A DNA stretch of 32,000 bases from Geobacter metallireducens GS-15 (GCF_000012925.1 NC_007517.1:2430001-2462000), one strand, 5' to 3'. Shown: positions 3,523 through 20,637, counted from the first letter of the stretch. Numbers and translations: made by a program. The notes: generated from the letters alone by a model not told the origin.

Positions 3523-4894
3523 GGCTCTTTAGCAGAATCTGTGGTGACACAGGGGTTCTGGCAAGTCGCCAAGTGTGTGATATAGCGCCACTTGCAGGCA
3601 CTTGATGGTTCGGAAACCGTACGCTTTTCTGATAGTCAGTTTTGCTTTGAGGTTCAGACCCTCTACCGCGCCGCTGGAAAGTCGGCCTTTTGCCTTGAAC
3701 CAGTTGAGAATCATCGGTTTGTGGTTGCGTAACATCCTGGCAACCTTCTTCATCGGTTCCAGGTCAGTTTGCATTGTCCTGATGACCCAGTCGTCGAGGA
3801 ACTTGCCAGCAAAGTCAGACCGCTGGTAGTCCCAGAACTGCTGAAAGTCCTCGCGCAGCAGATATGCCTTGATTGATGAGAGGTTGAGCTTGAGCAAATC
3901 TCCCAATCGTGACGTCTGCTTCTCGGACAGATTTTCCGGCCGTTTCAGCAGCAACCAACGGCCCTTTTCCAGGACGTTCTCCTGCTTGGCGGCCTTGAAC
4001 TCCTTGGCTTCGGTGCGCCGAACCTCGTCAATCGCTTCGTTAAACTTCCGCATGATGTGGAAGCGGTCGAGGATGTTCACGGCATTGGGTGCCCGCTTGG
4101 CGATAACCTTGAGATACGGTGCCCACATGTCGCTGCAGACATACTTGAGCTTGGCGCTGCGTTCTTTGCCGAATTCCCGAAAGAAGCGCAGTAGCGTTCT
4201 TATCCGACGTTGCGGACCACACCAGAGAAGACGCCTGACGCCGGCATTGAGCTGATAGACCATCGTAAGATACTGATGGCCCTTGAAGACGGCAATTTCA
4301 TCAACACCGATTTCCGTAACGCCATCAAGGTTTCTGTTTGCCAGGCCGTAATCGACAGCATACTGCACCGCCCGAAAGATGCTGTCCCAACTGGTCTTAA
4401 AGATTTCGGCAACTTCCTTCCAGGAGAGTCGCCGAGCCCACCGGGCAAGATAGACCTGGTACGAGATCGTCATTTGCTCTTTGCCATACCCCCAGGGGAG
4501 GGATTCAACCTTTACCCCATGGATTGGGCACAGAACCCGACGGGGAGCGTAGCGAAAGAAGACCTTGAACGCCCAGATCGGCACATACTCGAACAGTCGG
4601 GCCGGTTGCGTGTCGTATGTCTTGCCTCGCTTGCCACATTCCGGGCATTCGGGCTTGCTGTTGCGACGAGCCTTGATGTCAATGACCAGTGCTTCTGAGC
4701 CGCCGACTTTCGCCAGTCGGCAATCTCCGTAAATGAAGGACTTGAAACGCTCGAACTTGTTCAGTACAGTCTTGATAAGCATTGCTTCTCCCGTGTCGGA
4801 CTTGATCGTTTCTCGCAAAAACAATCTTATCCTTCACGGAGGGGCAATGCCCTTATTTTTTCAGCCAACTACCCACAGATTCTGCGGACGAGGC
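3523..4894 (-). mobile_element. ISL3-family insertion sequence, apparently intact
   Basis: The imperfect terminal inverted repeats share the 13-nt core GCAGAATCTGTGG (3532-3544, and rc of 4872-4884), with GGCTC/GCCTC ends. They are flanked by the 8-bp direct repeat CAATTTCC (3515-3522 and 4895-4902). Boundaries are +/-1 nt. The element has a single transposase ORF. Confidence 0.85.
3529..4782 (-). CDS. ISL3-family transposase
   Basis: N-terminal zinc-finger pattern CPECG...CPIHG. Central VDEIAVFKGHQYLTMVYQL and DRFHIMRKFNEAIDEVRR. C-terminal SSGAVEGLNLKAKLTIRKAYGFR, typical of ISL3 transposases. ATG 4782 follows GGGAGAAG. The track start at 4824 is a TTG. The stop lies inside the terminal repeat. 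Confidence 0.9.
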   Translation of the reverse strand: MLIKTVLNKFERFKSFIYGDCRLAKVGGSEALVIDIKARRNSKPECPECGKRGKTYDTQPARLFEYVPIWAFKVFFRYAPRRVLCPIHGVKVESLPWGYGKEQMTISYQVYLARWARRLSWKEVAEIFKTSWDSIFRAVQYAVDYGLANRNLDGVTEIGVDEIAVFKGHQYLTMVYQLNAGVRRLLWCGPQRRIRTLLRFFREFGKERSAKLKYVCSDMWAPYLKVIAKRAPNAVNILDRFHIMRKFNEAIDEVRRTEAKEFKAAKQENVLEKGRWLLLKRPENLSEKQTSRLGDLLKLNLSSIKAYLLREDFQQFWDYQRSDFAGKFLDDWVIRTMQTDLEPMKKVARMLRNHKPMILNWFKAKGRLSSGAVEGLNLKAKLTIRKAYGFRTIKCLQVALYHTLGDLPEPLCHHRFC

Positions 4895-5406: not shown

Positions 5407-7182
5407 ATGAGACTCGTCATCCCCTGCATCACGTCATTTCTTATTACGGCCGTTCTCACCCCCTTCGTCATCCGCATCGCGACCGCCTGCAGGTGCGTGG
5501 ATGTGCCAGGCGAGCGACGCCTGCACCGGAGGCCGACTCCCCGGTGGGGAGGGGCGGCGTTTTTCGCCGGGGTGCTCCCCTTTCTGTTTGTCGAGAGCCA
5601 TGGCGGAGCATTGGCGTCGTTCATTGCCGCGTCGTTCATTCTGGTCGGCATGGGGATGGTGGATGACCTTTCCTCCCTTGACTGGAAAATGAAATTTGCC
5701 GTCATGGCGGCCGCGGCCACAATCGTCATATTCGGCGGCAACGTCACCATCAACCACATCGGGGTCTTTGGCTCACTGGGGCGGTTGGACCTGGGGATGT
5801 TAAGCATCCCCTTCACCTACATCGGCATCATTGGCATTACCAACGCCATCAACCTCCTCGACGGCCTCGACGGCCTGGCAGGCGGCGTATCGCTTCTGGG
5901 ATTCCTGTTCATGGGGATTGCGGCCCTCCTTACGGGCAACGTACCGGTAGCGGTCATCTGCTTCGCCTATGTGGGGGCGCTGGGAGCCTTTCTCCTCTTC
6001 AACTTCCCCAACGCCAGAATCTTCATGGGGGACACGGGAAGCCTCTTTCTCGGGTTCTCTCTTGCCTTCGTGGCCGTGCTCCTCACGCAGGGCGTACAAG
6101 ACTCGGTGGACTCCATGTTCCCGGTGCTCGTGCTCCTCATCCCCATCTTCGACACGCTCCGGGTCCTGCTGGTACGACTGCTGAAAAAGAAAAACCCGTT
6201 CCGGGCAGACAACCTTCATCTCCACTACCTGATGGTGCGCAGGAATATTCCCCCGGCACACGTGACGCTCCTCTTCTGGGGGGGCACGGCCCTCTTCGGC
6301 TCCATTGCGCTGCTCCTCACAAACCGGCCATCGGTCTCGTATCTTTCCGTCGTGCTGTATGCCGCGTCATTCCTGGGCCTGACCGCCGCAAGCCTGACAC
6401 CGGGAGTGGAGGCCGGCAGGGAAGCGAAACCGGTTGAAACCAGTTCCTACAATACGGCCAGACAGCCGTACAGGCCCAAGGAAGGGACGATTACCGTCAG
6501 GCTGATGTTTGTCCTTGGCGTCGTTTTCCTGGCAACCCAGGTCTTTGCCGAGGAACCGGCCGTTCTCAAGACCCAGCGGGACAAGGTCAATTACGCCATT
6601 GGCGTCAACATGGTGAGGAACTTTACGCAGCAGTCGGTCGAAATCGACCTGGATATGCTGATGCAGGGCATGAGGGACGCCCGTTCAGGCGGCAAGCTTC
6701 TCATGACTGAGGAAGAGATCCGCAGAACCACCCTTGCCGTTCAGGAAGAGGTGCGGAAGAGACAGAAGATGGCCCCCATAATAGCGGCCAAGGAGGGGCA
6801 GGCATTCCTGGCTGAAAACAAAACGAAAGAGGGAGTGGTAACCCTGCCGAGCGGCCTCCAGTACAAGATACTGAAGGCAGGTAACGGCAGGACCCCCACG
6901 GATGTTGACCATGTTCTCTGCGACTACCGCGGGACCCTTCTGAACGGAGCTGAATTCGACCGCTCCTATCCCGGCCGTCCGGTGACGTTCAGTGTCGCCG
7001 AAGGAGGAGGAATCCCCGGCCTGAGCGAAGCTTTGAAAATGATGCCGGTGAACTCAAAGTGGCAACTTTTCATTCCCTCCCAACTGGCCTACGGAGAGCG
7101 GGGGCGGACAAGTCTCATCGGATCGCCGGTCGGGCCCAATGAGACGATCATCGTGGAGGTTGAGCTCCTCGCGATCAAGTGA
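5407..7182 (+). CDS. in-frame fusion: WecA/MraY-family polyprenyl-phosphate sugar-1-phosphate transferase (N) plus FkpA/Mip-like FKBP peptidyl-prolyl isomerase (C)
   Basis: 591-aa ORF with no internal stop. AGAGGA lies upstream of ATG 5407. The N-terminal ~330 aa is polytopic with GT4-family motifs (NAINLLDGLDGLAGG, FMGDTGSLFLGFSL). A linker follows, then the signal-peptide-like MFVLGVVFLATQVFAEE (from 6505). After that come an FKBP_N-like helix region and an FKBP_C domain (LPSGLQYKILKAGNGRTP...DYRGTLLNGAEFDRSY...LFIPSQLAYGERG). Confidence 0.8.
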   Translation: MRLVIPCITSFLITAVLTPFVIRIATACRCVDVPGERRLHRRPTPRWGGAAFFAGVLPFLFVESHGGALASFIAASFILVGMGMVDDLSSLDWKMKFAVMAAAATIVIFGGNVTINHIGVFGSLGRLDLGMLSIPFTYIGIIGITNAINLLDGLDGLAGGVSLLGFLFMGIAALLTGNVPVAVICFAYVGALGAFLLFNFPNARIFMGDTGSLFLGFSLAFVAVLLTQGVQDSVDSMFPVLVLLIPIFDTLRVLLVRLLKKKNPFRADNLHLHYLMVRRNIPPAHVTLLFWGGTALFGSIALLLTNRPSVSYLSVVLYAASFLGLTAASLTPGVEAGREAKPVETSSYNTARQPYRPKEGTITVRLMFVLGVVFLATQVFAEEPAVLKTQRDKVNYAIGVNMVRNFTQQSVEIDLDMLMQGMRDARSGGKLLMTEEEIRRTTLAVQEEVRKRQKMAPIIAAKEGQAFLAENKTKEGVVTLPSGLQYKILKAGNGRTPTDVDHVLCDYRGTLLNGAEFDRSYPGRPVTFSVAEGGGIPGLSEALKMMPVNSKWQLFIPSQLAYGERGRTSLIGSPVGPNETIIVEVELLAIK

Positions 7183-7471: not shown

Positions 7472-7499
7472 GAACTTGAGCGATTTTGGAGGAGGACCT

Positions 7500-10400
7500 A
7501 TGAACAGGCAACAGCTTTCAATCATTATGAGCCTGGTGCTTGCACTGGCGGCACTTCCCCTGGCTGCCTACGCTGGTCCGGGGACAAGGGCGACGCCGCC
7601 GGCACCTGACTACCCTGCGTCCGCAACGCCCAGCGGAGGCACGTTCTACGCCAACAGCCCGGCAGGCCCCTGGAAATACACTAACATCATGGGCACCTAC
7701 AGTAGCGCTTCCAGCAATTCCGGAACCCCTCTCAGGAAGTTTGTCGACTCGCTGCCGGGGCTCGGGTCCGGCGCACGGCCTGCCGGTACAGCCCTGGGCG
7801 CCAACAACCTCGGGCAGTACATCCCAATCGCAGCTCCCGACACGGCCACGTACCCCGGCTCGGATTACTACCAGATCGGTCTGAAAGACTACCGGGTACA
7901 GATGCACTCGGACCTCCCCCCCACCGCGGATGCGTTGGGAACCGGCACTAAGCTGAGGGGGTATTACCAGAAAAACGGTACGGACCACTCGTCCAACTAC
8001 CTGGGACCTCTGATCATTGCCCAGAAGGACCGGCCGGTGCGCATCAAGTTCTTTAACGAACTGGGCGCTAACGGCGCGGGCGACCTCTTCATACCGGTGG
8101 ACACCACGTACATGGGTGCGGGGATGGGCCCCAACGGGATGGATAACTACACACAGAACCGGGCCGATCTTCATCTCCATGGCGGACACTCTCCGTGGAT
8201 CAGTGACGGGACCCCACACCAGTGGATCACCCCGGCCGGGGAGACGAGCACCCCCTATACCTCTGGTGCAAGTTTGAGAAACGTTCCCGACATGGATGGC
8301 GGGATCGAGCCGGCCGGCGCCTCCACCTATTTCTGGACCAACAACCAGAGCGGCAGGATGTTGTTCTACCACGACCATTCCTACGGGATAACGCGCCTCA
8401 ACGTCTATGCCGGCGAGGCGGCAGGCTACCTCATAGTCGATCCCGCGGAAGAGACCTCGCTGGCCGCCGCCGGCGTCCCCGGCACCATCCGTAATCCAGC
8501 CAATCTGGGGGATACGGCAAATAACGACCTGGCACACATTATCCCCCTGATCATCCAGGACAAGACTTTCGTTCCCCAGGACATTGCCGTTCAGGATACG
8601 AAATGGAACGATCCCAAATGGGGCAAGTACGGCGACCTGTGGTTCCCGCACGTCTACGAAACGAACCAGTGGCCCACCAACCCGGACCTGAGTGGTGCGA
8701 ACAACTTCGGCCGGTGGGACTACGGCCCCTGGTTCTGGCCGATCTTCCCCGCTGCCGTTCCGGGACTGCCCACAATGAACGTGTCCGGCGTGCCTGAAGG
8801 GTTCATGGATACGCCCGTTGTCAACGGTACGGCCTACCCGTATATGGACGTACAGCCCCAGGCCTACCGGTTGCGGATCCTGAACGCGGCCAACGACCGG
8901 ATGTTCAACCTCTCCTTCTTTACGGCCGACCCGACCCTTACCCCCTTTGACCCGGTGACCGGCCAGCCGAACCCCGGTTATCAAAAGGAAGTCAAAATGG
9001 TTCCGGCAGTTCCGCGGCCGGTCTGCAGTGCGACCGTCACCACGAACTGCACCTGCGCCGGCGCCCCCGGAACACCGGTTGGCTGTTTCCCGCCGACCTG
9101 GCCCACGGATTCGAGGGCGGGCGGCGTGCCCGACCCGGCCACAGCCGGCCCGCCAATCATCCAGATAGGTTCTGAAGGCGGCCTGCTGCCGGCGCCTACC
9201 GTGATCAATCCCCAACCGGTCAACTATGAATACAATCGCAGAAACGTGGTGGTCCTGAATGTGTCGGACAAGGCGCTCTTCCTGGGGCCGGCGGAACGGG
9301 CCGATGTGATCGTCGACTTTTCCGCCTATGCCGGCAAGACCGTCATCCTTTACAACGACGGCCCCGCGCCGGTGCCGGCGTTCGACCCGCGCAACGACTA
9401 CTACACGGGCTGCCCGGATAATACCTCGTCGGGTGGCGCACCTCCGACAATGGCCGGTTACGGTCCCAACACCCGGACCATCATGCAGTTCCGGGTAGCG
9501 GCTGCTACTCCGGTACCCTTCAATCCGGCTCCGTTAACCACGGCTCTGCCGACGATCTATGCAGCGTCGCAGCCCGCGCCGGTGATTCCGCAAACCGGCT
9601 ATCCCGGCCCCTATAAAGCAACAGCCGATACCTATTCCAGAATATCAGACAACTCCCTGACCTTTACGCCGGTCGGCGCCACCGCGCCGGTAACGATGCC
9701 CATGAAGTCGAAGGCCATTCAGGAGCTTTTCACCGCGGACTATGGCCGCATGAACGCCACTCTGGGGGTCGAACTGCCGTTTACCAACGCCCTTATCCAG
9801 ACGACGATTCCCCTGGGTTACATAGACCCGACAACCGAACAGCTCAACAACGGCCAGCCCCAGCTCTGGAAGATCACCCATAACGGCGTTGACACCCATG
9901 CCATCCATTTCCACCTGTTCGACGTGCAGATCATCAACCGGGTCGGCTGGGACGGCATGATTCGGCCACCCGACGCCAACGAGTTGGGATGGAAGGATAC
10001 GGTCAGGATGCACCCGCTGGAAGACATCGTTGTCGCCATGAGACCGACGACGCCGCCTGTGCCATTCCCTCTCCCCAACAGCGTCCGGCCGCTCGACGTG
10101 ACAATGCCTCTGGGTACCACAACGCAATTTACCGGTGTTGATCCCACTACCAATACGCCGATCACCGTTACCAACGAGTTGACAAACTTTGAGCACGAGT
10201 ACGTTTGGCACTGCCATCTCCTGGGTCATGAAGAGAATGACATGATGCGGCCAGTTGTATTCGCTACCAAGCCGCCACAGGGTGACTTCAACGGCCTCGG
10301 CAAAACCGATATCGCCGTCTGGCGCCCTGGCACCACCGGCCAATGGTGGATCAAAACGTCAACTAACACGCCCGTTGTAATAAACCAGGGAATAACCGGA

Positions 10401-11105
10401 GATAAGCTCGTTCCCGGCGACTACGATGGCGACAGAAAGACCGACGTGGCCGTATGGCGCCCCTCCGACGGCAACTGGTACATTACCAACAGTGCCAACG
10501 GGACGACCAGTACCATAGGTTACGGAACCAATGGCGACATCCCCGTCCCCGGCGACTACGATGGCATCGGCAAAACCGAGACGGCAGTGTGGCGCCCCTC
10601 CAATGGTACCTGGTATATCCCCAACAGCGCCAATGGTACGCAGAGCGTCATAACGTACGGGACGAACGGCGACATCCCCGTCGCCGGCGACTACGACGGC
10701 GACGGCAAGACTGACGTTGCCGTCTGGCGTCCATCCAATGGCAGATGGTACATCAAGAACAGCGGCTCAACCACGCAAACCGTCGTCAGCTACGGCTCGA
10801 ACGGCGATACCCCCGTTCCCGGCGATTACGACGGCGACAACAAGACCGACATGGCCGTCTGGCGCAACGGCACCTGGTACATCAAGAACAGCGCCACCAA
10901 TACCCAAACTGTCGTGAATTTCGGCACCGCCGGCGACATCCCGGTCCCCGGCGACTACGAAAACCTCGGCCGGACGGAAATAGCCGTATGGCGTCCCTCC
11001 AACGGCAACTGGTACATCATGAATCCGGTGACCCACTTGCAAACCACCGTAAACTGGGGCGCCCCGACAGACTTGCCCATCAAGGTATTCCAACCGGTGA
11101 AGTAG
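7500..11105 (+). CDS. large secreted multicopper oxidase with C-terminal FG-GAP/VCBS repeat module (possibly OmpB/OmpC-like)
   Basis: GGAGGAGG lies upstream of ATG 7500; the track start at 7476 is a TTG. Sec-type signal MNRQQLSIIMSLVLALAALPLAAYA. All four MCO copper-ligand motifs are present: HLHGGH, YHDHSYG, HAIHFH, HCHLLGHEENDMM. The last ~274 aa are six tandem DxDxDG repeats. Confidence 0.9.
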   Translation: MNRQQLSIIMSLVLALAALPLAAYAGPGTRATPPAPDYPASATPSGGTFYANSPAGPWKYTNIMGTYSSASSNSGTPLRKFVDSLPGLGSGARPAGTALGANNLGQYIPIAAPDTATYPGSDYYQIGLKDYRVQMHSDLPPTADALGTGTKLRGYYQKNGTDHSSNYLGPLIIAQKDRPVRIKFFNELGANGAGDLFIPVDTTYMGAGMGPNGMDNYTQNRADLHLHGGHSPWISDGTPHQWITPAGETSTPYTSGASLRNVPDMDGGIEPAGASTYFWTNNQSGRMLFYHDHSYGITRLNVYAGEAAGYLIVDPAEETSLAAAGVPGTIRNPANLGDTANNDLAHIIPLIIQDKTFVPQDIAVQDTKWNDPKWGKYGDLWFPHVYETNQWPTNPDLSGANNFGRWDYGPWFWPIFPAAVPGLPTMNVSGVPEGFMDTPVVNGTAYPYMDVQPQAYRLRILNAANDRMFNLSFFTADPTLTPFDPVTGQPNPGYQKEVKMVPAVPRPVCSATVTTNCTCAGAPGTPVGCFPPTWPTDSRAGGVPDPATAGPPIIQIGSEGGLLPAPTVINPQPVNYEYNRRNVVVLNVSDKALFLGPAERADVIVDFSAYAGKTVILYNDGPAPVPAFDPRNDYYTGCPDNTSSGGAPPTMAGYGPNTRTIMQFRVAAATPVPFNPAPLTTALPTIYAASQPAPVIPQTGYPGPYKATADTYSRISDNSLTFTPVGATAPVTMPMKSKAIQELFTADYGRMNATLGVELPFTNALIQTTIPLGYIDPTTEQLNNGQPQLWKITHNGVDTHAIHFHLFDVQIINRVGWDGMIRPPDANELGWKDTVRMHPLEDIVVAMRPTTPPVPFPLPNSVRPLDVTMPLGTTTQFTGVDPTTNTPITVTNELTNFEHEYVWHCHLLGHEENDMMRPVVFATKPPQGDFNGLGKTDIAVWRPGTTGQWWIKTSTNTPVVINQGITGDKLVPGDYDGDRKTDVAVWRPSDGNWYITNSANGTTSTIGYGTNGDIPVPGDYDGIGKTETAVWRPSNGTWYIPNSANGTQSVITYGTNGDIPVAGDYDGDGKTDVAVWRPSNGRWYIKNSGSTTQTVVSYGSNGDTPVPGDYDGDNKTDMAVWRNGTWYIKNSATNTQTVVNFGTAGDIPVPGDYENLGRTEIAVWRPSNGNWYIMNPVTHLQTTVNWGAPTDLPIKVFQPVK
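10281..11102 (+). repeat. six tandem ~43-46-aa FG-GAP/VCBS-type repeats (coding)
   Basis: The unit GDYDGDGKTDxAVWRPSNGxWYIxNSxxGxQxxxxYGxxGDxPVP occurs six times. Repeat 5 is the short form (WRNGTWYIKNS). Repeat 6 is the terminal variant GDYENLGRTEIAVWRPSNGNWYIM. Confidence 0.9.
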
Positions 11106-11119
11106 ATGAGAAGAACCGG

Positions 11120-11147
11120 AAAGGCCGGCAGCAATGCCGGCCTTTTT
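11120..11147 (+). terminator. rho-independent terminator of oxidase operon 1
   Basis: AAAGGCCGGCA-GCAA-TGCCGGCCTTT followed by a T run, 15 nt after the stop codon. Confidence 0.85.
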
Positions 11148-11383: not shown

Positions 11384-11698
11384 ATGAAACTAGCTGTCGT
11401 GGCCGGAATGGTGCTACTGCCGCACGTTCTGTTTGCGGATACCGACTGCCGGGTCGATGAATACCCGGATCACTACGTGGTCGTATGCACCGGAGAAGAA
11501 AAAGCAGAACCTCCGGCGCCCCGGCCGTCGACTATAGGTCAATCCGCCACAGCAGCAACGTCCGCAACGCCGATTCAAGCCGCAATCCAGGATCACTCAA
11601 CGGATAGCATCAATGGGCCCAGGCCCGGCCGCATGTCCAGGTCGCGCCTCGAGGCCGCGATCACGGCCCGTAACAGGTTTCTGCAGGAGAATGAGTGA
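11384..11698 (+). CDS. small secreted protein (104 aa), unknown function
   Basis: ATG 11384 follows GAGGGG. Signal peptide MKLAVVAGMVLLPHVLFA|DTDC. The mature part has two Cys (DTDCRVDEYPDHYVVVCTG), an A/T/P-rich linker and a basic C-terminal helix (SRSRLEAAITARNRFLQENE). Its stop lies 35 nt before the next start. Confidence 0.6.
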   Translation: MKLAVVAGMVLLPHVLFADTDCRVDEYPDHYVVVCTGEEKAEPPAPRPSTIGQSATAATSATPIQAAIQDHSTDSINGPRPGRMSRSRLEAAITARNRFLQENE

Positions 11699-11733
11699 TC
11701 CGTCATATCCAAAAATCAAGGAGGAATCAGTAC

Positions 11734-12519
11734 ATGAGCCGGTTTTCTCATCTGAAATGGGGTGATTACTCGCTGAAATCCCCCGAATCCGTACCAGCCT
11801 TTCCCTGCCTCAGGGGCAATAGCCGCGGCAGGAGATGTATCCCCATAGGAATCTGGGGCTTGATCCTGTTGTTCTGTGCGGTATCCGCCGCCCTCGGTCA
11901 GGAGATCAAGGGAGAGAATGCAAAGCTCAACTACAGCGTGGGCTACCAGGTGGGCAGTGATTTCAAGGCCCATGGCGTGGAACTGGACCCCGACGCACTG
12001 ATGCAGGGGGTACAGGATGCCGTCAAGCAGAAAGAGCCGTCTGTGTCCAAAGAAGAGATGAACAAGTCCCTGACGGGACTCAAACGGAAGATTGATGCCG
12101 CCGGGCAGACGAGCGCCCGGCAGAAAACCGCCGAGTACCGCCGCGCCAGCGAGGCATTTCTGAAGGAGAACGCCCAAAAGGAAGGGGTCAAGATCCTGCC
12201 GAGCGGCGTCCAGTACCGGGTAATCAGCGAAGGGAGCGGCAAAATGCCAACCCTCAAGGATGAGGTAAAGGTCCACTATCGCATCTCGCGGATAGACGGC
12301 AAGGAGTTGGGCAACACCTATGACGCCGGCATTCCGAGAACCGTCTCCGTGGCAAAAGCGATGCCGGCCCTCCAGGAGGTGCTGCCGCTGATGGCCGAGG
12401 GGTCCAAGTGGCAGGTCGTCATCCCCACTGGCACCGCTTCGGGAAACAAGGAACCCCTGGATGACCAGGGAGTTTTGATCTACGACCTGGAACTGGTTTC
12501 CGTTATTCCGGCTAAATAG
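11734..12519 (+). CDS. FkpA/Mip-like periplasmic FKBP-domain protein with degenerate catalytic residues
   Basis: AAGGAGGA lies upstream of ATG 11734; the track start at 11695 is a GTG. Hydrophobic anchor/signal IPIGIWGLILLFCAVSAALG. FKBP_N-like (KLNYSVGYQVGSDF...ALMQGVQDAV) and FKBP_C-like (ILPSGVQYRVISEGSGKMP...VKVHYRISRIDGKEL...WQVVIPTGTASG) regions. Confidence 0.8.
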   Translation: MSRFSHLKWGDYSLKSPESVPAFPCLRGNSRGRRCIPIGIWGLILLFCAVSAALGQEIKGENAKLNYSVGYQVGSDFKAHGVELDPDALMQGVQDAVKQKEPSVSKEEMNKSLTGLKRKIDAAGQTSARQKTAEYRRASEAFLKENAQKEGVKILPSGVQYRVISEGSGKMPTLKDEVKVHYRISRIDGKELGNTYDAGIPRTVSVAKAMPALQEVLPLMAEGSKWQVVIPTGTASGNKEPLDDQGVLIYDLELVSVIPAK

Positions 12520-12670: not shown

Positions 12671-15600
12671 ATGAATGATCACCCACCATGGAAAACCGGA
12701 ACCAGGCTGCTCTCCGCCCTCACCTTCCTGGGCCTGAGCATCACGTCAACCGCCCACGCGGTGCCTGTACCGGGGGGGACCGTCGACCCCGCCAGCATCC
12801 CCAAGTACGTGACCCCTCTGGTCATCCCCCCGGTGATGCCCGCAAGTGTCTCGTCACCGGCCCCGGCGGCCAAATATGACATCGCTGTCCGCCAGTTCAA
12901 ACAGCAGATCCTTCCCGGCGGCATCTGGGGGAGCAGCTTCCCCAACCCGCTCGCTGCTGCGCCGGCAACGGTCGGCCCATTCCCTGCCACAACCGTGTGG
13001 AGTTACGGCCGGGCATCGGACCCGCAGCCGGATTCAACGGCGATCGTGGGGGGAGGCGTAGGGATCGCGCCGGCCACGAACTCGAGCTTCAACTATCCGG
13101 CCTTCACCGTGGAAAACACCTCGAACGTGGCTACCTCGGTGCGCTGGAGCAACGATCTGGTCGCCGATCCGGTTGCCTGCGCGGCATCTCCCAACAAGAG
13201 CGTCGCCGCGTGTAATTTCCTGCCTCACCTCTTCAGCGTGGACCAGACCATCCACTGGGCCAACCCGACCGGCACGGGCTGCGTCATGGCCATGAACCCC
13301 CTCGGGGTCGATTGCCACACGGCCAATGCAGCTCCCTACATCGGTCCGGTCCCACTGGTGACCCACGTCCACGGCGCCCATGTCATGCCCCATAGCGACG
13401 GCTATCCCGAAGCGTGGTGGCTCCCCGGCACCCCCGGCACCAAGGGGATTCCAGCCAGCTATGTGGAGCGCGGCACGAAATACGACCAGGCCAACACCGC
13501 CAACGCCATCGCCGGCACGGCCTACTTCAACTACCTCAACACCCAGCCGGCCACAACGATCTGGTATCATGACCATACCATCGGCATGACCCGGCTTAAC
13601 GTCTATGCAGGCCCGGCCGGTTTCTGGCTCATCAGGGGGGGCGTGAACGATCTGGCAGCCGGCAGCCTTCCCGGCCCGGCACCGACCGTCGGGCAAGACC
13701 CGAACCTAACCCCCGCGACCCGCAACGCCATCCGCGAGGTGCCGATTGTCATCCAGGACCGTTCGTTCGATTGGGCCGATGCCGCCGGCAACACGCTCCC
13801 CACGTCGACGGGGGCCACCCAGGCCAAGCTGTTCTACCCGTCCAGCCGCCTCTTCTTCGACGGCTTCACCGGACCGTACATCGGTGGAGTCGGCACCCCT
13901 GCCGGTCCTTCGGACATCTCCCCCATACTCAACCCCGAAGTGTTCTTCAACACCATGGTGGTCAACGGCACAACCTGGCCGAAATTCACCGTGGCGCCGA
14001 CCAAATACCGCTTCCGCTTCCTGGACGGCTGCAACTCCCGGACCCTCAACCTCTCGATGTATGTGGTAACCGCCGGCCCCGACGGCAAATGGGGCACGGC
14101 CGACGACGTGAAGACCACTACGGAAATCCCCTTCTACCAGATCGGCGGCGATCAGGGGTTCCTTCCCAAGGTCGTCAAGATCACCAAGGGCTTCGCTACC
14201 GCCCTTCCCGGGAACGGGACCATCCCGGCAGCCGTGGCCGCTCCCTCCACCGAACAGGGTTTGTTGATGGGTCCGGCTGAACGTGCCGACGTGATCATCG
14301 ACTTCACCGGTCTGGCCAACGGTACCCATGTCCGGATTTTCAACACGGGTCCCGACGCCCCCTTCCAGGGGTTCCCGGCCAACCTGGCACTCTATGCGCC
14401 GGCCGATCCGCTCACCTCCGGACAGGTGATGGATTTCATCGTCGACTCCGTTGCCGTTCCCGTGCTCCCGAGCGACGCAACCACAACGACGGTGCAGAAC
14501 CTCGTCCTCCCCAGCGAGGCACCCCTCGGCGCACCGGTGCCCACTCCCCGCAAGGTTTCCCTGAACGAGCTGGACTCCGCCCAGGTCTGCGTCGAAGTCA
14601 ATCCGGTCACCGCGGCAATCGTCCGGACGATTTTCAGCACCTTCGCCGGGGATCCGAACTTTGCGGCCAACTGCGCGAAGGCGGCGGTCCTCACACCGGG
14701 TGATGTGCCGTTGCCGGCAGGCCCCCGCATAACGCTCCTCGGCACGCTGTCCGCCGACGGGCTTACGGCGGTCCCGTTGAACTGGAATGATCCGCTCACC
14801 GAACTGCCGCTTCTCAGCAGCACCGAAACCTGGGAAATCTACAACACCACCATGGATGGACATCCTGTCCACGTACACCTGGTGCGGTTCGAGCTGGTCA
14901 ACCGGCAAAAACTCCTCGCCGCCACCCTGACGCCGGACCCCGCGGCCGGCAGCACGACTCTCCCGCAACCCAACGAACAGGGCTTTAAAGACACCATCAT
15001 CGCGCTGCCCGGACAGGTTACCCGGATAAAGGCAAAGTTCGACATCGAGGGGCTCTATGTATGGCACTGCCATATCGTCGAGCATGAAGACAACGAGATG
15101 ATGCGCCCCTATGTGGTGCACAAGGCGCGGCTCAACGCCGATTTCGACGGCGACGGCAAGACCGACCTGGTGGTCTGGCGCCCCAACACGGGTGACTGGC
15201 TGCACATGCCATCATTCACCAACATGACCCGCACGGTCAACTTCGGCACCACCGGCGATAAGCTGGTCCCCGGCGATTACGACGGCGACGGCAGGGTCGA
15301 CATGGCTGTCTGGCGCCCCTCCAACGGCCACTGGTACTTCATGAACAGCATCACCGGCGCCCAGAGCACCGTCAGCTACGGGACCATGGGCGATACCCCC
15401 GTCCCCGGCGACTATGACGGCGACGGCAAGACCGACATGGCCGTCTGGCGCGGCGGCAGCTGGTTCATCAAGAATAGCGCCACCGGCACCCAGAGCACCC
15501 CCAGCTACGGGACCACCGGCGACATCCCCGTTCCCGGCGACTACGACGGCGACGGCAAGACCGACCTGGCTGTCTGGCGCCCCACCAACGGGACCTGGTA

Positions 15601-15955
15601 CATCACGAACAGCGCCACCGGCACGCAAACCACCGCGGCTTACGGGACCACCGGCGACGTTGTCGTCCCCGGCGACTATGACGGCGACGGCAAGACCGAC
15701 ATCGCCGTCTGGCGCAACGGCACCTGGTTCATCAAGAACAGCGGCAACGGCACCCAGAGCGTCATCAGTTACGGGACCGCCGGCGATATCCCCGTACCGG
15801 GCGACTACGACAGCATCGGCAGGACCAGCATCGCTGTCTGGCGTCCTTCCAACGGAACCTGGTATATCATGGACACCGTCACCGGCAAGCAACGGACGGT
15901 GAGTTGGGGCCTGTCCACCGATCAGCCCGTCCAGGCAAACCAGCCAGTGAAGTAA
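12671..15955 (+). CDS. large secreted multicopper oxidase with C-terminal FG-GAP/VCBS repeat module
   Basis: GAGGAGG lies upstream of ATG 12671. Sec-type signal ...LLSALTFLGLSITSTAHA|VP. Copper motifs HVHGAH, YHDHTIG, HPVHVH, HCHIVEHEDNEMM. The last ~272 aa are six tandem DxDxDG repeats. Confidence 0.9.
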   Translation: MNDHPPWKTGTRLLSALTFLGLSITSTAHAVPVPGGTVDPASIPKYVTPLVIPPVMPASVSSPAPAAKYDIAVRQFKQQILPGGIWGSSFPNPLAAAPATVGPFPATTVWSYGRASDPQPDSTAIVGGGVGIAPATNSSFNYPAFTVENTSNVATSVRWSNDLVADPVACAASPNKSVAACNFLPHLFSVDQTIHWANPTGTGCVMAMNPLGVDCHTANAAPYIGPVPLVTHVHGAHVMPHSDGYPEAWWLPGTPGTKGIPASYVERGTKYDQANTANAIAGTAYFNYLNTQPATTIWYHDHTIGMTRLNVYAGPAGFWLIRGGVNDLAAGSLPGPAPTVGQDPNLTPATRNAIREVPIVIQDRSFDWADAAGNTLPTSTGATQAKLFYPSSRLFFDGFTGPYIGGVGTPAGPSDISPILNPEVFFNTMVVNGTTWPKFTVAPTKYRFRFLDGCNSRTLNLSMYVVTAGPDGKWGTADDVKTTTEIPFYQIGGDQGFLPKVVKITKGFATALPGNGTIPAAVAAPSTEQGLLMGPAERADVIIDFTGLANGTHVRIFNTGPDAPFQGFPANLALYAPADPLTSGQVMDFIVDSVAVPVLPSDATTTTVQNLVLPSEAPLGAPVPTPRKVSLNELDSAQVCVEVNPVTAAIVRTIFSTFAGDPNFAANCAKAAVLTPGDVPLPAGPRITLLGTLSADGLTAVPLNWNDPLTELPLLSSTETWEIYNTTMDGHPVHVHLVRFELVNRQKLLAATLTPDPAAGSTTLPQPNEQGFKDTIIALPGQVTRIKAKFDIEGLYVWHCHIVEHEDNEMMRPYVVHKARLNADFDGDGKTDLVVWRPNTGDWLHMPSFTNMTRTVNFGTTGDKLVPGDYDGDGRVDMAVWRPSNGHWYFMNSITGAQSTVSYGTMGDTPVPGDYDGDGKTDMAVWRGGSWFIKNSATGTQSTPSYGTTGDIPVPGDYDGDGKTDLAVWRPTNGTWYITNSATGTQTTAAYGTTGDVVVPGDYDGDGKTDIAVWRNGTWFIKNSGNGTQSVISYGTAGDIPVPGDYDSIGRTSIAVWRPSNGTWYIMDTVTGKQRTVSWGLSTDQPVQANQPVK
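15137..15952 (+). repeat. six tandem FG-GAP/VCBS-type repeats (coding)
   Basis: Same unit as 10281-11102. Repeats 3 and 5 are the short form (WRGGSWFIKNS, WRNGTWFIKNS). Repeat 6 is the terminal variant GDYDSIGRTSIAVWRPSNGTWYIM. Confidence 0.9.
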
Positions 15956-15982
15956 ACGAGAAGTTCCAGCAGCAGCACAACG

Positions 15983-16014
15983 GAAAGGCCGGCAGAAGTG
16001 CCGGCCTTTCTTTT
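15983..16014 (+). terminator. rho-independent terminator of oxidase operon 2, U-tract interrupted by an IS
   Basis: GAAAGGCCGGCA-GAAG-TGCCGGCCTTTC then TTTT. The IS left end starts at 16015. Confidence 0.8.
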
Positions 16015-17340
16015 GGTTCTTCAGGGAATTCCGGGGAAGATTAATAAACAACAACGGCAGCACTGCGGTATCTTGATGGTTCCCCAACCAAAAAAGATCG
16101 CAGGAGGCTGCCGTTGTCGTATTCCGATGTTATCGCAATTGCGGGAGGGTGGGAAGGATATCGTGTTGCTGGGACACGCACTATCGTCACAGGTGATGCC
16201 AAACGGATCGAGGTAGAACTGATTGCCCTGTCCCAGGATGAGATGGTGTGTGGCTCGTGCGGCGGGCGTTGCACAAGCGTCCATGAAACGACCAAGCGCG
16301 TAATTCGAGATTTGCCGATTCTCGATGCTCAGACTTATCTGATCGTTCACCGCCGCAGGCTGCTGTGCCCTCAGTGTGGGCCAACGCTGGAGCGTCTGTC
16401 ATGGCTGGCGAAATACGCCCGCGTGACGCGCAGGCTTGCAGAGAGCGTAGCGCGACTGTGTGGTGTCGTGTCTGTGAAGCACGTGGCGCAGTATCTGGGG
16501 CTTTCTTGGGACCAGGTGAAGGAAATCGACAAGCGCTCACTCACAGAGCGGGTCGGCACCGTCGACCTCTCAAACATCGAAGTTCTCGGGATGGATGAGT
16601 TCGCCCTTCACAAGGGGCACCGCTATGCGACGGTTATCATCGAGCCATACCGTAAGGAAGTCTTATGGATCGGCAAAGGCAGGAGTCGCGAGAGTATCCG
16701 TCCTTTCTTCACGCAGCTTGGCCCACATGGCTGTAAACGGCTCAAAGCGGTCGTGATGGATATGAACGCATCATATGAGGAGGAAATCAAGCAGCACTCG
16801 CCCCAGGCAGACATAGTCTACGACCTGTTCCATGTGGTGGCGAAGTATGGCAGGGAAGTGATCGACAGGGTGCGAGTCGATGAGGCAAACCGCCTGAAGG
16901 AAGACAAGAAGGCACGGAAGGTAGTCAAAACATCGCGGTGGTTGCTGCTACGAAACAGCGAGAACGTCAAGGGCGACGACATGCTTCGCCTCCAGGAACT
17001 GTTGGAGGCAAACCGCAGCCTCCTTACGGTCTACCTGCTCAAAGACGATCTGAAGCAACTGTGGAAGTTTACCTGCATTGAAGAGGCGGGACTATTCTGG
17101 GAGCAGTGGCACCAAAGGGCGATGGAGAGTGGAATACCGCCACTCATCCTGTTTGCCCGCCGGCTAAAGGGCTATCTCCAAGGAATCCTCAACCACTGCC
17201 TCTGGCCCCTTCACACCGGAATCCTCGAAGGCATCAATAACAAGATCAAGGTGATCAAAAGAATGGCCTACGGCTTCCGGGATCACGAATACTTCTTTCT
17301 CAAGATCAGAGCCGCTTTCCCCGGAATTCCCGGATGAACC
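16015..17340 (+). mobile_element. ISL3-family insertion sequence (a different member from the one at 3523), apparently intact
   Basis: Terminal inverted repeats GGTTCTTCAGGGAATTCCGGGGAA (16015-16038) and rc of 17317-17340 GGTTCATCCGGGAATTCCGGGGAA match at 22/24 by hand count. They are flanked by the perfect 8-bp direct repeat TTTCTTTT (16007-16014 and 17341-17348). Confidence 0.9.
16114..17337 (+). CDS. ISL3-family transposase
   Basis: GGAGG lies 6 nt upstream of the TTG start at 16114. Zinc-finger pattern CGSCGG...CPQCG. Central MDEFALHKGHRYATVII and DLFHVVAKYGREVIDRVR. C-terminal HTGILEGINNKIKVIKRMAYGFRDHEYFFLKI. The stop lies inside the right terminal repeat. Confidence 0.9.
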   Translation: MSYSDVIAIAGGWEGYRVAGTRTIVTGDAKRIEVELIALSQDEMVCGSCGGRCTSVHETTKRVIRDLPILDAQTYLIVHRRRLLCPQCGPTLERLSWLAKYARVTRRLAESVARLCGVVSVKHVAQYLGLSWDQVKEIDKRSLTERVGTVDLSNIEVLGMDEFALHKGHRYATVIIEPYRKEVLWIGKGRSRESIRPFFTQLGPHGCKRLKAVVMDMNASYEEEIKQHSPQADIVYDLFHVVAKYGREVIDRVRVDEANRLKEDKKARKVVKTSRWLLLRNSENVKGDDMLRLQELLEANRSLLTVYLLKDDLKQLWKFTCIEEAGLFWEQWHQRAMESGIPPLILFARRLKGYLQGILNHCLWPLHTGILEGINNKIKVIKRMAYGFRDHEYFFLKIRAAFPGIPG

Positions 17341-17377
17341 TTTCTTTTTGCCCCATCTTCCACCGCCGGTTCCCGGG

Positions 17378-17521
17378 AGGGGCGGAGCTCTTGCGGAGAA
17401 GCGATCCCCGCAAAAAACCACCTTCGGTATTGGCGGAGGGAAAGCCTCGGAAACAGCTGTTCACGTGCCACGAAGACCGGCTGGTGACGCTGGATCGCTT
17501 CGGAGCAAGAGCTCCGCCCCT
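17378..17521. repeat. long imperfect inverted repeat (30-nt arms, 84-nt spacer); function unknown
   Basis: Left arm AGGGGCGGAGCTCTTGCGGAGAAGCGATCC (17378-17407) pairs with right arm GGATCGCTTCGGAGCAAGAGCTCCGCCCCT (17492-17521). That is 17 bp, a 3x3 internal mismatch (GGA/GGA), then 10 bp. Confidence 0.8.
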
Positions 17522-17619
17522 GCCCGCCACAATGTGAAATCAGTATTAAAAATATTTTTTTTGACTTTATTCCCCCCACTAAGGCACAAATAGATAACAA
17601 ATTCACAACAGACTCGATA

Positions 17620-17696
17620 CACGACAATACTCAACCATCCGCGAGGATGGGGCGGAAAGCCTACAGGGTCTCCAGCAGACAGCCGGGTTGCCGAAA
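17620..17696 (+). ncRNA. candidate GEMM-I class (c-di-GMP-I / cGAMP) riboswitch aptamer
   Basis: CAACC, then a perfect hairpin CCAUCC-GCGA-GGAUGG (17635-17650), then GGCGGAAAGCC, then an imperfect hairpin CU(A)C(A)GGGUCU-CCAGC-AGAC(AG)CCGGG, then UUGCCGA. Block order and sequence parallel the V. cholerae Vc2 aptamer as I remember it (GCAAACC-AUUC-GAAA-GAGU-GGGACGCAAAGCC...GGGGUUACCGA). No covariance-model search was possible. Confidence 0.6.
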
Positions 17697-17728
17697 TATC
17701 ACTCGATGATAGCGGTCCCGGCTTTTTT
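17681..17728 (+). terminator. intrinsic terminator acting as riboswitch expression platform
   Basis: AGCCGGG (17681-17687) pairs with CCCGGCT (17717-17723), extended by inner stems CCG/CGG and TATCA/TGATA, then a T run (17723-17728). The 5' arm overlaps the 3' strand of the proposed aptamer helix. It lies about 125 nt upstream of the start codon at 17853. Confidence 0.65.
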
Positions 17729-17852
17729 GTGCGCAAAAATCCGGGCAACAACCAGCACAGGGGAGGAATTATTTCAAAAGATGTCACAACGAGGAGAGCA
17801 GTTGTTTTCGGACGAAGAAACGTATCTTCCAAGGAATGGAAAAGGAGTCTGC

Positions 17853-19457
17853 ATGCGAATCATCAGTAAGACATCGGTATTTTTCGCCTTTGCCATGGCA
17901 CTGGCGACATTTCAGCTCTGGCGCGGCGAGGCACAGGCATACCCCGCATACTTCACGGCCAACTGCGCCGGCTGCCACGCCTCACCGGTAGTGGCCACCT
18001 GCAACGGTTGCCATCACCACGGCCCGGTCGGGTTGAAGGGAACCACGGACAAGGCAACCTATGCGCCGGGAGAGGCCGTATCGGTTACCATCAGCGGCGG
18101 AAGCCAGAGCGGCTGGGTCAGGGCCATCCTCTACGATCAGAACAATACGCGCGTTGCCGTATCGAACGGCAATGCCAGCGGCATGGGAAGCGCGACCACC
18201 TTCCCGGCAGTGCTGAGCGCGCCGGCGCCCACGACCCCCGGCACCTACACCTGGAAAGCGGCCTGGTACGGCAACAGCTATGATACCGGCAATGCAACCG
18301 CGGCCGCCCACGGCGAAGTGTCGGTGAACACCAACTCCTTCACCGTCGTGGCCCCCGCTGACACGACTGTTCCCGTGGTCAGCAGCTTTACCCTTCCCGC
18401 CACCACCACCAACCTGACCGTGCCGGTCACGAGCTTCACCGCCACCGACAACGTGGCTGTCACCGGTTACCTGATCACCAAGAGCGCCACTGCCCCGACA
18501 GCGACCACCGCCGGCTGGACAGCCGCCGCACCGGCCACTGTCAGCGCCGCTGCCGGCAAAAACACCTTCTATGCCTGGGCCAAGGACGCGGTGGGGAACG
18601 TCTCTCTTGCCAAAAGCGCCATCGTTACCGTCGTCGGCAAGATCATCTCCAGGGACTTCGATGGCGACGGCAAGACCGACCTAGCCGTGCTGGATCCCCA
18701 GAGCTACAACTGGTTCATTCTGAACAGCGCTACCGGCAAGCAGAATGTCGTGAATTACGGCACCTCCGGCGATATCGCCGTCCCCGGCGACTACGACGGC
18801 GACAAAAAAGCCGATATCGCGGTATGGCGCACCTCTACCGGCACCTGGTACATCACCAACAGCGCCACCGGCGCCCAGAGCGTCGTGAAATTCGGAACGA
18901 CCGGCGACATCCCCGTCCCCGGCGACTACGATGTGGACGGCAAGACCGATATCGCGGTATGGCGACCCTCCAACGGCACCTGGTACGTCATCAACAGCTC
19001 CACCGGCGCCCAGAGCGTCGTGAACTTCGGAACCTCGGGAGATACCCCCGTTGCTGGCGACTATGACGGCGACGGCAAGACTGATATGGCCGTATGGCGC
19101 CCCTCCAACGGCACCTGGTACGTCATCAACAGCTCCACCGGCGCCCAGAGCGTCGTGAAGTACGGGGCAGCCACCGACACCCCCGTCCCCGGCGACTACG
19201 ACGGCGACGGCAAGACCGATATCGCGGTATGGCGCAGCGGCACCTGGTTCATCACGAACAGTGCCACAAAAACGCAAAGTGTCGTCAATTTCGGGACTAC
19301 CGGCGACATCCCGGTTCCGGGCGATTACGACGGTACGGGCAGGACTGAAAGCGCTGTCTGGCGTTCAGCGGAAGGGAACTGGTATATCATGAACGGCATG
19401 ACCGGCGCCCAACGGATCCTTCAGTTGGGGATACCGACCGACAAGCCCATCAAGTAA
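17853..19457 (+). CDS. secreted protein with two CXXCH haem-binding motifs, Ig-like middle domains and C-terminal FG-GAP/VCBS repeat module
   Basis: AAAGGAG lies upstream of ATG 17853; the track ORF starts further upstream at 17688, inside the leader. Signal MRIISKTSVFFAFAMALATFQLWRGEAQA|YP. CAGCH (17964-17978) and CNGCHHH (18000-18020). The T/A/P-rich beta-sandwich-like segments include SFTATDNVAVTGYLI. The last ~267 aa are six DxDxDG repeats. Confidence 0.85.
   Translation: MRIISKTSVFFAFAMALATFQLWRGEAQAYPAYFTANCAGCHASPVVATCNGCHHHGPVGLKGTTDKATYAPGEAVSVTISGGSQSGWVRAILYDQNNTRVAVSNGNASGMGSATTFPAVLSAPAPTTPGTYTWKAAWYGNSYDTGNATAAAHGEVSVNTNSFTVVAPADTTVPVVSSFTLPATTTNLTVPVTSFTATDNVAVTGYLITKSATAPTATTAGWTAAAPATVSAAAGKNTFYAWAKDAVGNVSLAKSAIVTVVGKIISRDFDGDGKTDLAVLDPQSYNWFILNSATGKQNVVNYGTSGDIAVPGDYDGDKKADIAVWRTSTGTWYITNSATGAQSVVKFGTTGDIPVPGDYDVDGKTDIAVWRPSNGTWYVINSSTGAQSVVNFGTSGDTPVAGDYDGDGKTDMAVWRPSNGTWYVINSSTGAQSVVKYGAATDTPVPGDYDGDGKTDIAVWRSGTWFITNSATKTQSVVNFGTTGDIPVPGDYDGTGRTESAVWRSAEGNWYIMNGMTGAQRILQLGIPTDKPIK
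18654..19454 (+). repeat. six tandem FG-GAP/VCBS-type repeats (coding)
   Basis: Same unit again. Repeat 5 is the short form (WRSGTWFITNS). Repeat 6 is the terminal variant GDYDGTGRTESAVWRSAEGNWYIM. Repeats 3 and 4 share a perfect 59-nt stretch (18966-19024 = 19101-19159). Confidence 0.9.
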
Positions 19458-20637
19458 GATTCCGTCTCCCAAGGCCGGCAGAAATGCCGGCCTTTTTTTC
19501 GGCCGGGATTGCCCCGGACAGGAGCACATCACCCCTCCTCTCCCCGCAATGCATTTCGATGAGGTCGAGATACTGTTCAGCTATGGCACCCCAGTCGTAT
19601 TTTTCCCGTATCCTGGCCCGGGCCTTGCCGGCAAGGGCAGCCTTTTCCGGCGCGGTGAGAGATTCGACCCCCTTCAGGAGAGCGGGGATAGTGGAGGATG
19701 ATGAAAAATAGAAACCGATATCCCCCACAACCTCACGGTTGAAGATATTGTCGTGGGCAATGATCAGACTGCCGCAGCCGAGGGCTTCGAGCAGGGAAGG
19801 ATTGGTTCCCCCGACGGAATGGCCATGGAAGCAGGCCCTCGCATGATAGCGAAGAGCCCGCAGTTCTTCCCGGTCGTAAACCCCGCCCACGAGCCTGACG
19901 CGCGACCCCGCCAGCGGTCGGAGTTTTCTTGCATAATCGGTGGTAACCATATGGTTGCCGACAACAACCAGCGGGATCTGCGTTTCGTGGGCGCGGTACC
20001 CTTCGATGATTTCCCGGACATGATTTTCAGGCTCGATGCGGGCGACCACCAGGTAGTACCCTCCGGGCTCAAGATTCCACTTGCGCAGGAGCGAGGCGTC
20101 CGGCGGCACAACCGCAACCGGGGCTCCGTAGGGGATTACGCTGCAGGGGGACGAGAGGCGATGCCGCGATTCGAGGTGAGCCCTTATCCCGTCGGCATCG
20201 GCGATGATCCGGTCGGGAACCCACGTTGACAGCCATTCCATCATTTTGAAGTAGAGCTTTGCCGCGCTGTTCCATTTCCCCCGCGCCCATTCGATCCCGT
20301 CCACATTGAGCCAGACGTCTGTCCCCCACACTTGCGGGATCAGGCAGAAGGGGGCCGCGCCATACCCCAGCATATAGACGACATCGTAGCTGTTGCGGGC
20401 ATGCCACAGGCAGCGCAGGTCGAACAGGACCGTGGTCAGGGGGCCACAGGCGGTTGCCGGGATATGGACGAGCCTGATCCCCCGGTATTCCCGCGGCTGA
20501 TCGGTGCCGTTTGCCTCGCAGTAGACCGTCACCTCGGTTCCCCGGGCGACCAGGCGGAGAGCGAGCTCTTCGGCAAAGGTTTCGAAGCCTCCGTAACGTG
20601 CGGGTATCCCCCGCGTGCCGAGTATGGCCAGTCTCAT
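19450..20637 (-). CDS. GT4-type glycosyltransferase with DUF1972-like N-terminus
   Basis: ATG 20637 follows GGGGAGG. MRLAILGTRGIPARYGGFETFAEELALRL is the typical DUF1972 start. C-half GT1/GT4 motif FHGHSVGGTNPSLLEALGCG. The ORF-track N-terminal extension to 20784 overlaps the upstream gene and is rejected. Confidence 0.85.
   Translation of the reverse strand: MRLAILGTRGIPARYGGFETFAEELALRLVARGTEVTVYCEANGTDQPREYRGIRLVHIPATACGPLTTVLFDLRCLWHARNSYDVVYMLGYGAAPFCLIPQVWGTDVWLNVDGIEWARGKWNSAAKLYFKMMEWLSTWVPDRIIADADGIRAHLESRHRLSSPCSVIPYGAPVAVVPPDASLLRKWNLEPGGYYLVVARIEPENHVREIIEGYRAHETQIPLVVVGNHMVTTDYARKLRPLAGSRVRLVGGVYDREELRALRYHARACFHGHSVGGTNPSLLEALGCGSLIIAHDNIFNREVVGDIGFYFSSSSTIPALLKGVESLTAPEKAALAGKARARIREKYDWGAIAEQYLDLIEMHCGERRGDVLLSGAIPAEKKAGISAGLGRRNLT
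19471..19499 (+). terminator. rho-independent terminator of the dihaem-protein gene
   Basis: AAGGCCGGCA-GAAA-TGCCGGCCTT followed by T7. It has the same stem as the terminators at 11120 and 15983, and lies inside the 3' coding end of the convergent glycosyltransferase ORF. Confidence 0.8.

Follow-up and report, generated by a model that had tools for sequence, protein, structure and literature searches.

In the window, the whole 32-kb stretch of DNA analysed here, an open reading frame of 534 amino acids on the + strand is preceded by a leader that holds a two-hairpin RNA element and an intrinsic terminator. Upstream of this leader lie the genes of a multicopper-oxidase/FG-GAP protein and an ISL3 transposase, and downstream, on the opposite strand, are genes for glycosyltransferases, a methyltransferase and an asparagine synthase. 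The remaining window carries surface-polysaccharide genes, a second multicopper-oxidase/FG-GAP paralogue, FKBP isomerases, two-component regulators and a second ISL3 transposase. The features of the locus are the following.

12671-15955, upstream of the riboswitch: multicopper-oxidase/FG-GAP protein
16114-17337, upstream of the riboswitch: ISL3 transposase open reading frame
17546-17560, + strand: A/T-rich run, conserved with G. hydrogenophilus from 17545, which may act as an UP-like element
17561-17566, + strand: candidate -35 element TTGACT, seen in the sequence, with TTGAC recurring at the equivalent place before the first copy of the riboswitch at many related loci
17585-17590, + strand: candidate weak -10 element CACAAA, a positional homologue after an 18-nt spacer, with a 3/6 match to TATAAT
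17616-17700, + strand: complete aptamer including P1, from the covariance-model alignments and the 44-copy alignment
17616-17619 with 17697-17700, + strand: outer P1, GAUA with UAUC, from the alignments
17622-17623 with 17692-17693, + strand: inner P1, C17622-G17693 and G17623-C17692, pairs present in the RF03167 model structure
17629, + strand: A at the equivalent of Vc2 G20 (A14 of Gs1761), the GEMM-Ib signature, from the covariance-model alignments
17630-17655, + strand: first hairpin, with C17630-G17655, U17631-G17654 and CCAUCC (17635-17640) paired with GGAUGG (17645-17650)
17641-17644, + strand: GYRA loop GCGA of the first hairpin, from sequence and model alignment
17656-17658, + strand: AAA linker, invariant in the 44-copy alignment
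17656, + strand: A at what we take, from the model alignment and the Vc2 structure, to be the equivalent of Vc2 A47, the intercalating adenine
17658-17689, + strand: second hairpin, with an AGCC/GGUU base, an apical stem GUCU/AGAC and the loop CCAGC
within 17658-17689, + strand: bulges of the second hairpin, U-A-C-A on the 5' side and A-G on the 3' side
17691, + strand: C equivalent to Vc2 C92 and pilM C75, from the model alignment; its terminator partner is G17715
17682-17728, + strand: intrinsic terminator, from folding, a 15-bp three-segment hairpin (17682-17722) followed by U6 (17723-17728)
17842-17847, + strand: Shine-Dalgarno sequence AAGGAG, separated from the ATG by 5 nt and also kept in G. 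hydrogenophilus, G. metallireducens and the metagenomic contig L002
17853-19457, + strand: regulated open reading frame of 534 amino acids, ATG at 17853, with the signal-peptide-like N-terminus MRIISKTSVFFAFAMALATFQLWRGEAQA

The 534-aa protein contains two CXXCH haem motifs (CAGCH and CNGCH), an Ig-like segment and FG-GAP/VCBS repeats (PF13517, E = 3.9e-28). Thus, open reading frame and domain analysis agrees with the sequence-only reading, a first description made from the DNA itself, which had linked the leader to a secreted dihaem FG-GAP protein. The exact protein is absent from the protein database, where a metagenomic protein with 73% identity and cytochrome c ABB30537.1 of G. metallireducens come closest. 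An upstream in-frame ATG at 17781, a start of the sort that the gene caller picked for P0001, was rejected as the start, since a 1-nt gap in G. hydrogenophilus breaks the frame and the signal peptide begins at 17853. For the closest homologue, P0001 of contig L002, the annotated start adds about 26 codons before the conserved MRIISK with which the signal peptide begins (contig positions 6001-6081), and is probably mis-called.

Two paralogous large proteins of the window (7476-11105 and 12671-15955) each join a multicopper-oxidase domain to FG-GAP repeats at the C-terminus. An FKBP-type isomerase gene or domain lies before each of them, in the C-terminal part of the open reading frame at 5407-7182 for the former and at 11695-12519 for the latter, and no riboswitch was found before either oxidase gene. 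Together with the dihaem FG-GAP gene, the oxidase paralogues sit inside a glycosyltransferase-rich surface-polysaccharide cluster. Downstream of each of the three FG-GAP genes is a near-identical GC-rich terminator hairpin (GGAAAGGCCGGCA...TGCCGGCCTTTC; 15978-16015, 11117-11145 and 19471-19499), and its copies are 93% identical to one another, a pattern that suggests these genes were duplicated together with their 3' ends.

The promoter region is conserved with G. hydrogenophilus, in which homology resumes at 17545, just before the A/T run and TTGACT. A/T runs before TTGAC are also seen in many related loci, which repeatedly show TTGAC(N), an 18-nt spacer and CATAAA, TATAAA or TATAAT. In the sequence-only reading, TTGACT at 17561-17566 was named as a possible -35 element and no convincing -10 element was found. 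The hexamer is present there and its TTGAC recurs across the related loci, and the comparison of these loci brings out CACAAA (17585-17590) as a positional homologue of the missing -10, albeit a weak one. From TTGACT-N18-CACAAA, transcription would probably start near 17597, putting the predicted start at about 17597-17600, roughly 17 nt before P1. Two other promoters were rejected. The sole promoter prediction of a consensus scan (TTCACA at 17602 with AATACT at 17631) falls within the aptamer, and a transcript begun from it would lack the 5' strand of P1. A sigma-54 promoter, suggested by GGCAC at 17583-17587, showed no GC at the -12 spacing on inspection.

The RNA element was identified by a covariance-model search of both strands of the whole 32-kb window against the 4227 families of Rfam. 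RF01051 (c-di-GMP-I) matched at 17619-17695 on the + strand over all 87 positions of the model, with 41.0 bits (gathering score 35, E = 7e-5), and was the sole family in the window at or above its curated threshold. The margin is just 6 bits, and related copies score 36-55 bits. The search thereby bears out the GEMM-I-like identity proposed in the sequence-only reading, and the sequence blocks on which that proposal drew, namely CAACC, CCAUCC-GCGA-GGAUGG (17635-17650), GGCGGAAAGCC, a second bulged hairpin and GGGUUGCCGA, are all found where it had placed them.

The architecture is that described for GEMM-I, with two adjacent hairpins, an AAA linker, a first hairpin capped by a GYRA loop and a closing P1 (PMC1950547). 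The linker between the hairpins of GEMM RNAs is "virtually always AAA" (Weinberg et al. 2007, PMC1950547). In the same work, a variant that lacks the tetraloop receptor was described, with a GYRA loop, bulged A's and a terminator that competes for the 3' strand of the second hairpin (PMC1950547). The loop without a receptor, the bulged A's and the competing terminator of the window RNA match this description, in keeping with the fit to the type-2 GEMM variant noted in the sequence-only reading. In addition, the element occupies a 5' regulatory position, with the end of the aptamer 153 nt upstream of the ATG (17853) of a gene in the same orientation. The resemblance to GEMM-I is not due to chance, and the segment 17616-17728 is almost certainly a member of this class.

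The same design is conserved upstream of homologous genes. A scan of species-representative genomes with a dihaem-domain alignment yielded 80 loci, and in Rfam scans of all 80, an RF01051 match lies before the gene and in its orientation at 38. Together with the window and two further loci chosen by protein identity, these 38 genome loci make 41 loci with 63 copies, in tandem at 22 loci (usually about 200-230 nt apart) and single at 19. The closest locus is that of Geobacter hydrogenophilus DSM 13691, which is syntenic with about 89-90% DNA identity and has a 100% identical aptamer. By pattern match, A at position 20 occurs together with A47 and C92 in 61 of the 63 copies, and A20 is invariant in the 44 copies that were aligned. 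The loop of the first hairpin is GCGA in 54 copies, GUGA in five and GAGA in two.

Pairing is maintained across these copies. Over the 44 aligned copies, 93.4% of the cells of the proposed structure are paired, a share that falls to 34-47% when the partners are slid. The first hairpin helix is 99.6% paired, with compensatory changes in four of its six pairs, and the second hairpin is paired in 92.9% of cells. Six pairs of the alignment show changes on both sides, and the observed covariation score was reached by none of 500 shuffles. The covariation is modest because the copies are similar (mean column identity 89%), and it is in agreement with the family, for which a structure has been solved.

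At L002 the tandem copies lie at 5634-5710 and 5852-5928, and the window copy corresponds to the gene-proximal one. Tandem GEMM-Ib copies each have their own terminator, as exemplified by the loci L009, L012, L023 and L027.

Folding of the leader reproduced the 15-bp interrupted hairpin followed by a U run that the sequence-only reading had placed at 17681-17728. Its stem comprises 6 bp (17682-17687 with 17717-17722), 4 bp (17690-17693 with 17713-17716) and 5 bp (17697-17701 with 17707-17711), closed by a loop at 17702-17706. The terminator energy is -21.1 kcal/mol in a fold of 17680-17735, with the same hairpin in the minimum-free-energy fold, and the aptamer fold alone, without ligand, has -15.1 kcal/mol. 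A simple consensus promoter/terminator scan reported no terminator here, though folding shows the interrupted stem, and we read this miss as a consequence of loop and bulge rules that disallow such a stem. Of the 63 copies, 62 are followed by a U-run, and a terminator hairpin is found in 61 of the 62 related copies examined (median 15 bp, median -20.8 kcal/mol), of which 58 pair the C92-equivalent. Inner-stem sequences vary from copy to copy with pairing kept (for example UAUCA/UGAUA, UAUCC/GGAUA and UGUC/GACG).

All 15 nucleotides of the terminator 5' arm are aptamer nucleotides, drawn from the 3' strand of the second hairpin (P3), the core residue C17691 and both parts of the P1 3' strand. 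The dual role earlier ascribed to the 3' strand of the second helix, as the 5' arm of the terminator, is thus recovered by folding, which puts 17682-17687 in the terminator stem. As the terminator 5' arm is made of aptamer nucleotides, the aptamer and the terminator are mutually exclusive, the arrangement of a transcriptional ON switch, and in the folding model the default state without ligand is termination. The ON-switch logic put forward in the sequence-only reading agrees with the published cGAMP riboswitches of pilM and pgcA (PMC9262584, PMC6456294). No pairing of the aptamer with the distant ribosome-binding site (17842-17847) was evident, and control at the level of transcription is thus the likely mode.

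In the proposed mechanism, the nascent RNA would fold into the two-hairpin aptamer, in whose junction 3',3'-cGAMP is predicted to bind, with its A contacting A17629, its G pairing with C17691 and A17656 stacking between its two bases. Ligand binding would lock P1 (17616-17623 with 17692-17700) and so keep 17682-17701 from the downstream strand at 17707-17722. With the terminator blocked, RNA polymerase would read through into the dihaem FG-GAP gene at 17853. In the unliganded RNA, the more stable 15-bp hairpin with U6 would form, and transcription would stop at about 17728. Ligand-dependent read-through is predicted here from the two competing folds, and for pgcA, increased termination has been seen in a cGAMP-synthase mutant (PMC6456294).

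The nearest characterised relative in this comparison is the pilM riboswitch of G. metallireducens, an experimentally studied cGAMP transcriptional ON switch, as the window switch is predicted to be (PMC9262584). With the pilM sequence taken from the supplement of Landgraf et al. 2022 (PMC9262584), the aptamers are identical at 77 of 86 positions (90%) and share the GAUA/UAUC P1, the A at the position-20 equivalent, the GCGA loop and the GCCGAA 3' core. In both, the terminator 5' arm is the 3' part of the aptamer and pairs the ligand-binding C (C75-G102 in pilM and C17691-G17715 here). Most of the nine differences affect the apical loop of P3, the single strand next to P1 and two positions in stems. 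Furthermore, the U-tract of the window terminator differs from that of pilM in being an uninterrupted U6, and the downstream gene encodes the dihaem FG-GAP protein, whereas in pilM it is a pilus assembly operon that follows.

Gs1761 of G. sulfurreducens (pgcA, GSUR3008; structures 4YAZ and 4YB0) is also a GEMM-Ib RNA, in which A14, equivalent to A20, recognises the adenine of cGAMP. It is likened to the window RNA by class, and controls another cytochrome. This cytochrome, PgcA, is extracellular; cGAMP binding to its riboswitch prevents termination, and its expression is about 10-fold lower in a gacA deletion (PMC6140456, PMC6456294).

Vc2 of Vibrio cholerae, the founding GEMM-I structure, belongs to the same Rfam family and has the same fold, with two hairpins joined by AAA, C92 pairing with the ligand G and A47 intercalating. 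It has G20, and so binds c-di-GMP, whereas the window RNA has A at position 20. In Vc2, a GAAA loop is combined with a tetraloop receptor, and the riboswitch is reported to act at the translation level. The window RNA, in contrast, combines a GYRA loop and no receptor with bulged A's and a terminator.

The RF01051 and RF03167 model alignments both place A17629, A17656 and C17691 at the G20, A47 and C92 positions with high posterior probability. This A/A/C core, with A at position 20 and A47 and C92 retained, is the pattern of GEMM-Ib. In cGAMP riboswitches, G20 is replaced by an adenine (A14 in Gs1761) that pairs with the adenine of cGAMP (PMC6140456). The sequence-only reading had left the ligand specificity undecided, and A at the position of Vc2 G20 now points, provisionally, to cGAMP. 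[quoted passage not shown] As A20 alone gives no guarantee of selectivity, cGAMP is the best-supported, predicted ligand. Affinity is influenced by the stability of P1 (PMC9262584, PMC6140456), and the outer P1 of the window aptamer has 4 bp only (GAUA/UAUC). No GGDEF domain, as would be expected of a Hypr-GGDEF cGAMP synthase such as GacA, was found among the subset of window open reading frames that was scanned. The full account, with cGAMP as the main ligand and anti-termination by an ON switch, is very probably correct.

The main competitor to cGAMP keeps the same ON-switch GEMM-I mechanism and changes the ligand, to c-di-GMP or to both dinucleotides. The matched Rfam family bears the name of c-di-GMP, and A20 aptamers can bind c-di-GMP through a protonated adenine, some natural ones being bispecific (PMC6140456). 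However, the base at position 20 of the window aptamer is A rather than G, and the aptamer is 90% identical to that of the pilM cGAMP riboswitch. Selectivity for cGAMP in two other Geobacter A20 riboswitches is about 1200-fold (pgcA, PMC6456294) and about 1600-fold (Gm0970, PMC8835794), and the Gmet_0970 riboswitch requires the change A20G to exchange its cGAMP selectivity for c-di-GMP selectivity (PMC6456294). Recognition of c-di-GMP, alone or in addition to cGAMP, is thus unlikely. As for the orthologous locus in G. metallireducens (L001), its riboswitch is not the well-studied Gm0970 RNA, as the downstream gene (ABB30537.1) is approximately Gmet_029x by an accession-order estimate and adjoins nrfA/nrfH-type genes.

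The neighbourhood of the riboswitch holds a complete ISL3 element at 16015-17340, with 24-nt terminal inverted repeats at 16015-16038 and 17317-17340. It is flanked by the 8-bp direct repeat TTTCTTTT and inserted into the T-tract of the terminator that follows the upstream multicopper-oxidase/FG-GAP gene, and is missing from the syntenic loci of G. hydrogenophilus (L004) and of metagenomic contig L002. About 220 nt separate the element from the -35, and the conserved promoter block (from 17545) is intact. As a downstream attenuator, the switch would also gate transcription reading out of the insertion sequence.

An alternative is that the window copy is decayed or non-functional, or a constitutive leader terminator that has lost its response to a ligand, perhaps through disturbance of the region by this insertion. 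The proximity of the ISL3 element to the -35, the weakness of the -10 and the presence of a single copy, where many relatives have two in tandem, would all fit such a decay. Against it, the aptamer is 100% identical to that of G. hydrogenophilus in flanking DNA of about 89% identity, indicating purifying selection, and every conserved core and paired position is intact. Moreover, the insertion sequence has its own 8-bp target duplication and did not touch the promoter block, and the closest relatives without it, G. hydrogenophilus and G. metallireducens, are also single-copy. Loss of function is, on this evidence, very improbable. The related idea that the insertion destroyed a first tandem copy was rejected, because a permissive Rfam search finds no remnant, the 8-bp duplication is clean and the IS-free relatives have a single copy.

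That the RNA belongs instead to the variant family c-di-GMP-I-GGC (RF03167), with an altered binding core and perhaps a different ligand, is barely credible, since the score of 45.3 bits, the highest of the clan under permissive thresholds, is well under the RF03167 gathering score of 59, and A17629 and A17656 stand where the model consensus has G. The name "GGC" presumably refers to core positions. The overall architecture is common to the two families, and the RF03167 model aligns end to end with the window RNA, P1 pairs included; the difference lies in the two positions aligned to 17629 and 17656. When raw scores of the two families, both in clan CL00126, were compared under permissive thresholds, RF03167 surpassed RF01051 at 17620-17696 (45.3 vs 41.0 bits) despite failing its own threshold. 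Permissive Rfam searches can thus give a misleading family name for GEMM-Ib RNAs.

With RF01051 membership and a predicted cGAMP-responsive ON switch as the preferred reading, all features found fit the published picture of GEMM-Ib. These riboswitches are abundant in Geobacter, where they occur, often in tandem, upstream of cytochrome, pilus and polysaccharide genes, and they are ON switches that respond to cGAMP made by GacA (PMC6456294, PMC8835794, PMC9262584). The gene of the secreted dihaem FG-GAP protein adds to the predicted cGAMP regulon of metal-reducing Geobacter. More generally, GEMM-Ib ON switches often precede genes for this N-terminal dihaem domain in Geobacterales (the 38 of 80 loci above, many in tandem), a modest extension of the predicted regulon. 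This association lends support to published work in which cGAMP governs components of extracellular electron transfer and of the cell surface, and the understanding of the riboswitch class and its mechanism is unchanged by the window example. A more speculative proposal, and one that is rather unlikely to hold, is that the dihaem FG-GAP gene, the multicopper-oxidase/FG-GAP paralogues and the polysaccharide cluster form a so far uncharacterised, cGAMP-controlled module for extracellular redox activity or adhesion.

Beyond the Geobacterales, no RF01051 match was found at most of the other loci (Anaeromyxobacter, Methylomirabilis, other Nitrospirota and others). In a Nitrospirota metagenome-assembled genome (L053), a divergent and longer RF01051 match lies before a homologous dihaem gene (1107-1201; 95 nt, 51.2 bits, GAAA loop).

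Within the window, a second transposase of the ISL3 family is encoded at 3529-4824 on the - strand (431 aa). It has no DNA match to the first element, and is thus part of a different insertion sequence. Between the first element and the riboswitch promoter lies an inverted repeat (17375-17407 and 17492-17524) with 33-nt arms that are 88% complementary and 84 nt apart; the sequence of 17375-17524 is not common to G. hydrogenophilus.

In the aptamer, positions 17652 and 17689 (columns 41 and 78 of the 44-copy alignment) co-vary, with G.U in 24 copies, A.C in 17, A-U in two and G-C in one. This is the pattern of an isosteric wobble pair; in Rfam, the partner of column 78 is instead the invariant A of column 47. 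The covariation may reflect a junction contact near the binding pocket, and a contact of wobble geometry at this place could tune ligand selectivity or pH dependence among the copies.
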